The notes under the pieces were generated by a model that saw nothing but the letters and a program-made list of their open reading frames with translations, made no database searches and had not been told where the DNA came from. The position numbers were made by a program, and so were the translations under genes. This document shows positions 16,962 through 18,531 of a DNA stretch of 39,748 bases, in pieces (position 1 is the stretch's first letter; each line of letters opens with the position of its first letter). Where the stretch lies: the sequence record SRR20825006_387, one strand, 5' to 3'.

Positions 16962-17303
16962 TTAGGAAGTGAACCTTCCCAAAGGTGATTCCACCACTCG
17001 CATTCGTTTCATCGTCACGCCTTCTTCCAACAACCGTTGCTCTTGCAAAGAAGGATTGACTGGCGGCAATCGCCCATCGTTGTAGACAACCCGCCACCAT
17101 GGCAATGCATCGAATGATGCCCCGAGCAATTGCCCCACCGCTCGGTGCCGACGTGGGTAGCCCGCTCGAGCGGCGACGTCGCCATAGCTGACCACTTCAC
17201 CGGGACGAAGCCCCTCAATCGTGCGAACAAACGCCGCGCGCATCGGATCCGTTTCGGATTCGCGAGCGGTCCACTCAGACGTTTTCGATGACTTCGATGA
17301 CAT
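16962..17303 (-). CDS. Alkyltransferase-like (ATL/YbaZ-type) MGMT-family DNA-binding protein
   Basis: PGEVVSYGDVAARAGYPRRHRAVG and active-site motif PWWRVV, with Trp in place of the catalytic Cys of PCHRV. C-terminal QEQRLLEEGV. Start uncertain. Confidence 0.85.
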   Translation of the reverse strand: MSSKSSKTSEWTARESETDPMRAAFVRTIEGLRPGEVVSYGDVAARAGYPRRHRAVGQLLGASFDALPWWRVVYNDGRLPPVNPSLQEQRLLEEGVTMKRMRVVESPLGRFTS

Positions 17304-17445
17304 GGGCTCAGAATTCCACTGAATTTTCGCTTCGCGGCCGCGAACCTGATTTTGGTTGCATGCGTCTTGACTACCGACGATCATGTCGTCAACGGGTCGC
17401 GATTCCGCGTCGCGACAAAACTTCCGCACGTTCGCTTGTCTTTTC

Positions 17446-17578
17446 TGGTTGGCACCTGGGCAAGTGGCGTCGAACCAAATTTTAAAAGGAGGTGATCAAG
17501 TGGATTATTGCTGTACTAGCCAACGGGGTGGAAACCCTTGACGAAAGTCGGCGGGCTGACGCCAGGGTCAGCCACCCC
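17446..17578 (+). ncRNA. Candidate structured RNA / mini-ORF element with extended Shine-Dalgarno
   Basis: AAAGGAGGTGATC (17485-17497), then GTG at 17500 opening MDYCCTSQRGGNP* (17500-17541). Hairpins GGGT-GGAA-ACCC, TTGAC-GAAA-GTCGG and GGCTGAC-N6-GTCAGCC. Confidence 0.5.
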
Positions 17579-17748
17579 ACTCGCGATCACTTTCTAGAAC
17601 GCGAGCATCGCCCGTTTGCTGAGATGGTTACCTTGGTCTCAGCAGACGGGTTCTTTATGCGCCGACCGTGTACCATCCGACACGAACCATCCAAGCTGTG
17701 CTCAAAGGCGCAAGCACGCAAAACCAATGCGTCGCTGCAACGAATGCG

Positions 17749-18531
17749 TTAGTTCACGCTGAACGGCGGAGGAAAGTCTTTTCGCGAACGTGACGATTCA
17801 GCCAAATCGACATCACCTTCTTCCACGCTGACCGATTGAAGATCCAGTCCGCCCTTTTGGATCAAGCGGATCAACGCTTCCGCTCGTTCATCCACATCTG
17901 ACATCGCCAGCAATTTGATCTTTTCATTCGGATCAAAGGGCAATGTGTAAGCGATGATGTCGGTGATCGGTCCCACTCCCATTTGGCCGGCCATCAAATC
18001 GTGCAACGATTTCTGTGAGCCTTCGCTGACGGGAATGATCTTGCCAAACGCTTCGAGCAAACGTTTCTTCAAATCCGCTCGCTTTTGCGTTCCAGCGGGA
18101 AGATAGAAGTCATCGATCAAATCAACTCGTGCCGTTCGGAACGAACGCCCGGTCTCCAGCTCATGCCGAATCGTGGCACGGCGGATCCCAACAATCAAAA
18201 TGTTGTGACGATCGCCTTCCAACTCGGCGTGCGAAATGATCTTTCCCACGCAAACGGTCGGCGAGATCGGCGGCAGCATGTTCAACGGCAACTTTTGCTT
18301 GGTCGCCTCATCGATCGCGACGTTGCCCTGTTGGTTCGTCAGCGTCGCCATCGTGATGAGATGATCAGTCGACAATGCTTCGTGCAGCATGTCGACGTAG
18401 CGAGGTTCGAACACATGCAAGGGTTGCATCGCATGGGGAAACAAAACCATCCCCGGAAGCGGAAACAACCGGACCAGCCCGTCGAAATCATCCGGCAGAC
18501 TGGTCACTCCTGTGATCGAATCAAAACTCAT
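17749..18531 (-). CDS. Lon protease N-terminal (substrate-binding) domain protein, without AAA+ or protease domains
   Basis: RLFPLPGMVLFPHAMQPLHVFEPRYVDML, CVGKII, NILIVGIRR and EKIKLLAMSDVDERAEAL match the LON_substr_bdg domain; only 260 aa. Confidence 0.88.
   Translation of the reverse strand: MSFDSITGVTSLPDDFDGLVRLFPLPGMVLFPHAMQPLHVFEPRYVDMLHEALSTDHLITMATLTNQQGNVAIDEATKQKLPLNMLPPISPTVCVGKIISHAELEGDRHNILIVGIRRATIRHELETGRSFRTARVDLIDDFYLPAGTQKRADLKKRLLEAFGKIIPVSEGSQKSLHDLMAGQMGVGPITDIIAYTLPFDPNEKIKLLAMSDVDERAEALIRLIQKGGLDLQSVSVEEGDVDLAESSRSRKDFPPPFSVN

Follow-up and report, generated by a model that had tools for sequence, protein, structure and literature searches.

A stretch of 39,748 nucleotides from sequence record SRR20825006_387 (the window, meaning this whole stretch of DNA) carries, in the gap between two minus-strand genes, a plus-strand unit of planctomycete DNA that is very probably a real, conserved small RNA gene containing a short open reading frame (ORF) of 13 codons, here called the mini-ORF. 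A preliminary description, made from the letters alone, had placed a structured element at 17446-17578; these positions are the middle 133 nt of a conserved unit of approximately 330 bp, in which promoter-like boxes and a terminator bound about 17356-17657. The two flanking genes contain an MGMT-type DNA-binding domain and a LON substrate-binding domain, respectively, the latter being the downstream neighbour, which runs convergently to the unit, in agreement with the earlier remark that no plus-strand gene follows. Genome-level work was centred on the nearest available genome (G001), which has 48% of the window's sampled words in common with it and is 98% identical over the locus. In blastn comparisons with distant species of the genus, conservation forms an island at 17338-17669 with unrelated DNA on both sides. 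A genus alignment of 24 sequences gives the order of the parts as an upstream box, promoter-like boxes, two 5' hairpins (the second with a conserved loop), a core, an insert-bearing stem, a long hairpin and a T run, and the core, from the Shine-Dalgarno (SD) sequence to 17590, is nearly invariant in it. The features are collected in Table 1; all sequence features listed in the preliminary description were found where it had placed them.

Table 1. Features of the small RNA locus (window coordinates).
Feature	Position	Strand	Remarks
Upstream box GCGAACCTGAT	17340-17350	+	CGAACC invariant in the 24-sequence genus alignment
Promoter-like boxes TTGCAT-17 nt-GATCAT	17356-17384	+	Boxes and spacing conserved in the family; GATAAT in most relatives
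Transcript (predicted)	17385-17657	+	About 225 nt under RNA-library contigs; about 270 nt if extending to the terminator T tract
Hairpin P1, GTCGCGAT/GTCGCGAC	17396-17416	+	8 pairs, 6 with compensatory changes (24 sequences)
Hairpin P2, apical loop TCTGGTTGGCA	17435-17464	+	Stem covaries; one pair CG 9, UA 8, UG 5, GC 2
Pseudoknot, 5' strand GTTGGC in P2 loop	17448-17453	+	Pairs with 17519-17524
Extended SD AAAGGAGGTGATC	17485-17497	+	13/13 match to the 16S 3' end
Mini-ORF MDYCCTSQRGGNP	17500-17541	+	13 codons; GTG start, TGA stop
Pseudoknot, 3' strand GCCAAC	17519-17524	+	Codons 7-9: Ser-Gln and first base of Arg
Helix Px, 5' strand GGGGTGG	17525-17531	+	Codons 9-11; SD-like; GAGGTGG in most other lineages
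Helix Px, 3' strand CCACCCC	17572-17578	+	Pairs with 17525-17531
Small hairpin GAC-GAAA-GTC	17540-17549	+	Overlaps the stop codon; seen in the sequence
Hairpin Py, GGCTGAC/GTCAGCC	17554-17573	+	Inner 5 pairs covary; one pair CG 20, AU 9, UG 6, UA 3
Stem CTCGCG/CGCGAG around the 16S-tail look-alike	17580-17605	+	Both arms conserved; CTGGGG...CACCAG in one species
Anti-SD look-alike GATCACTTTC	17585-17594	+	Pairs with GGAGGTGATC at 17488-17497, 10 bp, two G-U; in the minimum-energy fold
Intrinsic terminator (predicted)	17611-17657	+	14-bp stem 17611-17624/17637-17650, loop TGGTTACCTTGG, T-rich tail
Contig of run X3	17387-17607		221 nt; whole contig
Contig of run X6	17416-17611		196 nt
Contig of run X2	17387-17590		247 nt; continues as insert-bearing variant of other species
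Contig of run X4	17384-17609		273 nt; sequencing-adapter letters at both ends

The SD sequence upstream of the mini-ORF had been proposed to be an exact complement of the 3' end of the 16S ribosomal RNA (16S). This was checked in G001, which has one 16S gene, ending in GGATCACCTCCTTTCT, and the proposal held over all 13 positions. The 11-mer AGGAGGTGATC occurs five times in the 7.1 Mb of G001, namely at the unit locus, in the 16S gene and at three other places, and a reversed-pattern control gave no occurrence; by these counts the match of the SD to the 16S tail exceeds chance. AGGAGGTG is kept in 109 of 115 homologues, and its internal pairing partner (described below) varies. The SD stays complementary to 16S as this partner drifts, which indicates that it is selected to meet the ribosome. 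In some relatives the complementarity extends to 17 nt with one G-U pair, taking in the G of GUG (GAAAGGAGGTGGTCCAGTG). One of the three other AGGAGGTGATC sites, in the region of G001:C1:4328888 (L042:1480-1560), lies before an ATG-led long frame and is directly preceded by GATCAC; a hairpin GATCAC-TCAGGAG-GTGATC would mask the SD at this site, the same trick applied to an ordinary gene.

As described earlier, the GTG at 17500 stands 7 nt 3' of GGAGG and opens a frame closed by TGA at 17539-17541. Both this frame and the long SD are conserved: all 115 homologues contain a frame of 12-15 codons (13 codons in 99, 14 in 12, 12 in two and 15 in two), which begins 6-8 nt 3' of GGAGG with GTG (105) or TTG (10) and never with ATG, and ends in TAG (48), TGA (44) or TAA (23), with TGG never found at the stop position. 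Differences in frame length amount to whole codons in at least eight lineages. The homologues contain 70 distinct peptides, in which a core C-T-S-Q-R-G-G is kept and the N- and C-terminal residues are variable; the core Thr is encoded by ACT, ACC, ACG and ACA, and the Arg is replaced by Lys once, in the second family of the class, through a change of CGA to AAA involving two bases. On these comparisons, the evidence that the frame is translated is good but indirect.

These data bear on the possibility that the gene serves chiefly to make its 13-residue peptide, which might for instance be a signal, a regulator or a cofactor precursor, with the RNA fold doing no more than tune its synthesis. 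The class-wide retention of the core through 70 peptides, the use of four Thr codons, the conservative replacement of Arg by Lys, and an SD of the strongest possible kind, which suggests a need for ribosome loading, would all be explained by such a function. The freely varying N- and C-terminal residues, together with the fact that most of the conserved codons are also constrained at the RNA level, speak against it, and further points are given below with the genomic context and the related families; overall, a functional peptide is considered quite unlikely. The preferred reading, developed below, is of a stand-alone RNA whose fold and lifetime respond to ribosomes.

The plus strand of the unit has a predicted folding energy of -110.1 kcal/mol with a z score of -4.07, compared with a z score of -2.91 for the minus strand. 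In the 24-sequence genus alignment, RNAalifold predicted 77 pairs, and 28 of these show compensatory changes; U-G pairs, those of the terminator among them, are compatible only with the plus strand. RNAalifold applied to a MAFFT alignment of 60 sequences gave 10 pairs only, and the helices were then named by eye and tested by pair counts; in these sequences three core helices are 82.8% paired, compared with at most 61.2% in slid controls. Of the two 5' hairpins, P1 keeps ACGC in its loop in most relatives, with a stem that becomes GCAC/GTGC, GTGA/TCAC and others in distant loci. The preliminary description had proposed a 5' hairpin formed by TGGTT (17446-17450) and AACCA (17473-17477). Both are present as letters, but this hairpin is not upheld: its 3' arm varies without compensation, and GGTTGGC sits in the loop of another stem (P2) and pairs with the ORF.

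This last pairing is a predicted pseudoknot between the P2 loop and codons 7-9. Its five core pairs are 86.4% paired across 108 sequences, with one pair appearing as UA in 62, CG in 16, UG in five, GU in three and AU in two; in the comparison with slid controls, pairing reaches 79.5% in the pseudoknot and no more than 46.5% in the controls, and none of 500 shuffles reached the observed score. ORF codons CAA and CAG are matched by loop sequences UUGGC and CUGGC, respectively, and GCCGA is matched by UCGGC. Immediately 3' of the pseudoknot strand, the pairing GGGGT/ACCCC (17525-17529/17574-17578), which had been offered as an alternative to a small hairpin, proved to be the covarying one and extends to GGGGTGG/CCACCCC (Px). 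Px is 90.9% paired, with four of its seven pairs changing on both sides (e.g. GGGGTAG/CTACCCC and GGGGAAG/CTTCCCC), and it competes with the small GGGT/ACCC hairpin and with the two outer pairs of Py. The other hairpins of the preliminary description fared unequally. Covariation supports GGCTGAC/GTCAGCC (17554-17560/17567-17573), and the two hairpins with GNRA loops, GGGT-GGAA-ACCC (17526-17537) and GAC-GAAA-GTC, are present in the window but confined to closer relatives; in distant relatives CTGCC-TGAC-GGCAG stands in place of the latter, with the stop codon in its loop.

The SD itself is predicted to pair with a downstream stretch that resembles the 16S tail. This helix is 80% paired in the 60 sequences, and the longest run of SD-to-downstream pairing has a mean of 9.1 nt compared with 6.7 nt in shuffles, beginning 100-109 nt past the SD in 72 of 114 loci. 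In distant lineages the look-alike reads GGATCACC(T), the actual 16S tail sequence, and in distant relatives it can pair either with the SD or with the 3' arm GATCC, in a switch-like manner. Judged from covariation, three helices bury the SD and the frame. In the loop of the surrounding CTCGCG/CGCGAG stem, at the point corresponding to 17594-17596, 14 of the 24 genus sequences, including L018:1453-1759, contain a variable insert with TTTTTGAGC...GCTCA-like repeats; most of these inserts are about 30 nt long, with a single one of 10 nt and another of about 45 nt.

Such extensive pairing raises the alternative of a purely non-coding structured RNA, in which the SD, start codon and ORF are untranslated strands of helices and the molecule acts by its fold or by pairing with RNAs or proteins. 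As would be expected of such an RNA, covarying helices take up the SD, codons 7-8 and codons 9-11 as one of their two strands, third-position changes (CAA/CAG) are compensated in the partner strand, and nucleotides past the stop codon, such as GTCGGCGGGCTG, are conserved equally with the frame; that the sister family Ms_IGR-5 (see below) has a different frame through a motif common to both points the same way. It would leave unexplained why 115 of 115 homologues keep both the start at its distance from GGAGG and the short frame, why TGG never replaces the stop, why length changes come in whole codons, and why the SD remains complementary to 16S while its internal partner drifts, and an RNA of the same design, rreB (see below), is weakly translated and turned over in a start-codon-dependent manner (PMC5711450). 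A non-coding RNA is therefore rated as improbable, and an RNA that is read by ribosomes is preferred.

The ends of the unit resemble those of an independent transcript. The promoter-like boxes at 17356-17384 were not among the promoters called by a consensus promoter scan of the window, and the upstream GCGAACCTGAT box could act as an UP-like element or bind a regulator. The -10-like box lies within an inverted repeat at 17375-17391, which reads TGACGATAATGTCGTCA in most species of the genus and CGACGATCATGTCGTCA in the window and is absent from other genera; this repeat could serve as an operator or, should transcription begin further upstream, form a hairpin at the 5' end of the RNA. At the other end, the terminator stem covaries in the genus alignment, its U-G pairs being compatible with the plus strand only, and a hairpin followed by a T run is also present at the terminator position in relatives in anchored views. 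The consensus scan did not call this terminator, its loop being longer than the scan rule allows.

Evidence for the RNA itself comes from public sequencing runs. Ten runs on record as RNA matched part of the stretch, and contigs of four of these, from four studies, were compared. Their cover is confined to the unit, and the flanks are bare except for a separate low-depth contig on the LON-domain gene. These contigs hint at a discrete RNA with a length of about 225 nt or more, and their ends hint weakly at the ends of the transcript. The terminator hairpin lies outside the contig cover, and a stable hairpin may be under-represented in such libraries; a processed 3' end was considered and dropped, since an uncovered terminator hairpin proves nothing.

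The terminator loop (17625-17636) is invariant in the genus, and its GGTTACCTTG could pair with 16S CAAGGTAGCC(GT), just 5' of helix 45, with one G-U pair. A general role of this loop as a second anti-16S segment was rejected, as only 56 of 115 loci have ACCTTG 3' of the ORF; about 53 of these 56 carry it in the terminator loop (read by eye), and it was found in none of the loci from more distant families.

The gene is widespread and usually single. A blastn comparison with 41 relatives gave one strong copy in each genome of the genus (23 of 23), and within the family 176 of 401 genomes, from 56 of 126 genera, had a match, which was nearly always the only one. A covariance model (R1) was built from 60 core sequences and used to search samples of genomes from the order and the phylum under strict filters, so that a genome without a match does not necessarily lack the gene. 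In the order sample, R1 matched 41 of 151 genomes from nine families: 10 of 10 genomes of the window's own family, including genera missed by blastn, and 8/10, 10/10, 3/3, 5/9, 2/2, 1/2, 1/1 and 1/3 genomes of eight other families, with no match under these filters in the remaining families of the sample. In the phylum sample nine of 151 genomes were matched, namely G001 and all six genomes of a second family belonging to the same class, the other two matches being weak ones from elsewhere. The homologue search called for in the preliminary description has been made, and the SD and ORF layout is kept in all 115 homologues examined.

The genomic context of the gene is variable. In 82 loci, no flanking gene family is common to more than 10; the longest downstream ORF is on the plus strand in 42, on the minus strand in 39 and absent in one, and the longest upstream ORF is on the plus strand in 41 and on the minus strand in 38. 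The two largest clusters of flanking ORFs were rejected as conserved neighbours, being spurious frames across the element. No conserved modifying, exporting or sensing neighbour was found in these loci, which is a further point against a functional peptide.

The context also bears on whether the element could be a cis-acting leader-peptide attenuator or riboswitch for a downstream gene. In leader-peptide attenuators such as trpL, a frame of 13-16 codons precedes alternative hairpins and an intrinsic terminator, and the planctomycete RNA is laid out similarly, with its short frame ahead of alternative hairpins and a terminator; the two pairing choices of the look-alike in distant relatives, the SD or the GATCC arm, are also switch-like. 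Unlike trpL-type attenuators, the planctomycete RNA has no downstream operon or regulatory codon run, and its SD is maximal and sequestered by a 16S look-alike. The next gene in the window is convergent and on the minus strand, downstream ORFs are evenly split between strands (42 and 39 of 82), and no gene family recurs in more than 10 loci. Since the neighbour strands look random, no neighbour is shared, and the unit has a terminator, a cis-regulatory leader is ruled out on this evidence, and a leader function is accorded scarcely any probability. The earlier proposal of an independent plus-strand small RNA, and not a leader, is therefore borne out by its own promoter-like boxes and terminator, the absence of a conserved neighbour and neighbour strands that look random. 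A short terminated RNA need not be confined to action in cis: the trans-acting attenuator RNA rnTrpL and its peptide peTrpL illustrate that such an RNA and its peptide can both act in trans.

Comparison with Rfam 15, also called for earlier, was carried out at gathering scores for the whole window and at expectation values (E) of up to 10 for 17250-17800. At gathering scores no family was recognised in the window, and the permissive scan gave chance-level rows only. Among known families, the Caulobacter small RNA CC2171 (RF01867) has the same start of sequence as the rre small mRNAs discussed below; the window reaches 14.4 bits (E 0.97) with its model, far from the cut-off of 75, and 10 of 18 relatives score 19-31 bits, the match resting on the SD, the GUG and the terminal hairpin. 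The window and CC2171 have GAAAGGAGGUGAUC.AGUG in common. Two widespread RNAs were considered and rejected. For 6S RNA (RF00013) there is no match in the window, and the predicted fold is multi-branched with a local 5' hairpin and not rod-like; nothing in G001 matched RF00013 at E up to 0.001, a search in which divergent 6S may be missed, since the model matches only five of 14 control genomes. The transfer-messenger RNA model (RF00023) has no match in the window either, and a full tmRNA is encoded elsewhere in G001 (144.7 bits).

The preliminary description had named the element as its best candidate for an undescribed system, which is not borne out: the design has already been published for rre genes of alphaproteobacteria, and Ms_IGR-5 (RF02471), discussed below, shares a motif with it and gives a sub-threshold model match. 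The rre small mRNAs are rreB of Bradyrhizobiaceae and rreR of Rhodobacterales (Hahn et al. 2016, RNA Biol 14:1353; PMC5711450). According to that report, rreB is a 165-nt stand-alone mRNA in which 17 nt are complementary to the 16S tail and a GTG start opens a conserved 14-codon frame; it sits on 30S subunits and is weakly translated, and conversion of its start codon into a stop codon makes the RNA more stable, so that its turnover is start-codon dependent. Analogues are known from four orders of alphaproteobacteria. Synthetic versions of the RreB and RreR peptides were unstructured, and putative RreB overproduction had no growth effect (PMC5711450), which count as points against a functional peptide.

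Compared with these genes, the planctomycete RNA is likewise a small stand-alone transcript with its own promoter (as predicted boxes), terminator and conserved GTG-led short frame (14-18 codons in rre), the set of features by which an rre-type gene would be recognised. In both, the SD is lengthened far past AGGAGG into a long complement of the 16S tail that is partly buried in a hairpin, and conservation within a clade goes with a genomic context that varies between clades. The differences are that the two are found in different phyla and show no sequence similarity outside the SD and start; that the rre complement covers at least 16 nt and runs into the GTG, compared with 13 nt ending 2 nt before the GTG in the window; that the frames have 14 (rreB) and 18 (rreR) codons as against 13 and encode unrelated peptides; and that the planctomycete RNA, at about 225-270 nt, is the larger of the two and contains a pseudoknot joining the 5' loop to the ORF, none being mentioned for rre in the part of PMC5711450 available. 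Literature searches on planctomycete small RNAs, small ORFs and SD elements found nothing on the planctomycete RNA in the collection covered, planctomycetes go unmentioned in two surveys of 26 and 50 genomes, and no later work on rreB or rreR appeared among the matches listed, which mostly concern the unrelated animal gene RREB1. The preliminary description had also raised a published Rhodopirellula-1 motif. This is a table entry in PMC2864571, which gives its taxa as Proteobacteria and Planctomycetes and marks it 'y' for cis-regulatory and '?' for RNA, without an Rfam accession. The motif could be the planctomycete element or something else.

A second relative in design is Ms_IGR-5, a small RNA of Actinobacteria. 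One of 18 relatives, from the second family (L144), matches the RF02471 model with 33.8 bits (E 5e-4; cut-off 45). A pattern taken from relatives, AAGGAGGTGGTC-N22-32-GAGGTGG, was found at no fewer than 120 loci in species-representative genomes, where about a dozen would be expected by chance (an estimate). Among the matches listed, these loci are mostly from Actinomycetota, with a few from Acidobacteriota, one from Heliobacteriaceae, one from a Syntrophobacter genome, and some from Planctomycetota. Eight of 16 pattern loci tested reach the RF02471 cut-off (seven actinobacterial and one from Blastocatellia), compared with none of three planctomycete-type loci. The window itself has GGGGTGG and GATC where the pattern has GAGGTGG and GGTC, and so falls outside the scan pattern.

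Frames were read, and R1 was cross-tested, in the first 80 of the at least 120 pattern loci. An ORF of 11-15 codons runs through the motif in 69 of the 80. In 66 of these the motif is read as GAG GTG (..R-E-V-A..), with the start 9-14 nt past AAGGAGG and the stop 8 nt past the motif; in the three planctomycete-type loci, those matched by R1, it is read as xGA GGT GG (..R-G-G..), the frame opening 6-7 nt past AAGGAGG and closing 7 nt past the motif. Seven loci from Acidimicrobiia and Acidobacteria (L160, L167, L176, L181, L195, L215 and L229) lack ATG, GTG or TTG at the expected start; L160 has an in-frame CTG at this position (read by eye), which hints at a non-canonical start. In a Terriglobia genome, a tRNA-Sec gene (RF01852, 78.5 bits; L174:416-506) lies about 4 kb from an Ms_IGR-5-like element, probably by coincidence.

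Judged from the member loci themselves, the planctomycete RNA and Ms_IGR-5 are alike in having a strong SD (AAGGAGGTGGTC), a frame of 11-15 codons that passes through GAGGTGG and stops 7-8 nt past it, pairing of GAGGTGG with a downstream ..CACC stretch, and a stand-alone transcript. They differ in the distance of the start from AAGGAGG (9-14 nt in Ms_IGR-5, 6-8 nt in the planctomycete RNA), in the use of ATG (29 of 69 compared with 0 of 115), in the frame of the motif (..R-E-V-A.. compared with ..Q-R-G-G..), and in the surroundings of the SD, which in Ms_IGR-5 is flanked by ACACG...CGTG, without a P2-loop pseudoknot (read by eye). On this comparison, the two families share RNA landmarks and predicted places of ribosome start and stop, and not a peptide, the different reading of the motif being a further point against the peptide as the functional product. 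Because Ms_IGR-5 reads GAGGUGG in another frame and stops at a nearly equal distance, the conserved function would be where ribosomes land and stop, and not the peptide.

We consider it likely that the element encodes a structured mini-mRNA or small RNA, transcribed on its own and equivalent in planctomycetes to the super-SD mRNAs of the rre and Ms_IGR-5 types. Its fold and lifetime would be set by ribosome engagement, and it probably acts by engaging ribosomes. In the proposed mechanism, the free RNA would be closed. A 30S subunit would displace the internal look-alike from the SD and so open the fold, and translation of 13 codons would unzip the pseudoknot and Px, ending at a fixed place. 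Ribosome binding and translation would set the fold and decay of the RNA, as measured for rreB, with freed RNA segments, the peptide or ribosome occupancy itself as possible outputs. The capture of 30S subunits and translation-dependent refolding, as suggested in the preliminary description, remain plausible in this scheme.

Several observations weigh against this reading. What it says of translation, 30S binding and phenotype we infer from sequences and from the analogy with rreB, and overproduction of rreB was without effect on growth in its host (PMC5711450). The contig 5' ends at 17385-17387 lie 1-3 nt past GATCAT, too close for this to be a sigma-70 -10 box, and the SD of the window is 13 nt long and ends 2 nt before the start codon. 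In two loci (L095 and L105) a 1-nt deletion alters the C-terminal residues, with a stop following at once. The whole frame is base-paired, and much of the peptide conservation could reflect RNA constraint; some of it is indeed attributable to that constraint, since the pseudoknot loop compensates for CAA/CAG changes. With regard to Ms_IGR-5, the window gives no match to RF02471 even at E up to 10 (gathering score 45 bits), and R1 matches only the three planctomycete loci among the 80, with no actinobacterial match at E up to 0.1 and one weak row at E 0.16. The shared motif is itself SD-like, and the resemblance could be convergent instead of reflecting common descent.

A broader and unlikely extension is that rre, Ms_IGR-5 and the planctomycete RNA are branches of one ancient, multi-phylum class of RNAs made for engagement of the small subunit. 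Only a 16S 3' tail that is free and has matured correctly would open their closed, pseudoknotted fold, a 'test drive' of 12-14 codons would report on or buffer the pool of free or new 30S subunits, and the peptide would be a by-product.

What was known already is the design, from rre and Ms_IGR-5; what is new is the family, its occurrence across the order and in one more family of the class, a fold with a pseudoknot, and the difference in frame from Ms_IGR-5. The planctomycete RNA thereby becomes a class-wide, well-supported RNA family with a covariance model and a presence in RNA libraries, at a locus for which the Rfam scans named no RNA, and the rre mini-mRNAs and Ms_IGR-5, so far isolated reports, are joined by a common ground plan. 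The same RNA landmarks are read in different frames across phyla, with start and stop at near-fixed places, which argues that ribosome engagement is conserved, and not the peptide. Planctomycetes use SD sites sparingly, which makes it striking that a single gene per genome maintains an SD of the greatest possible length alongside an internal stretch resembling the 16S tail.

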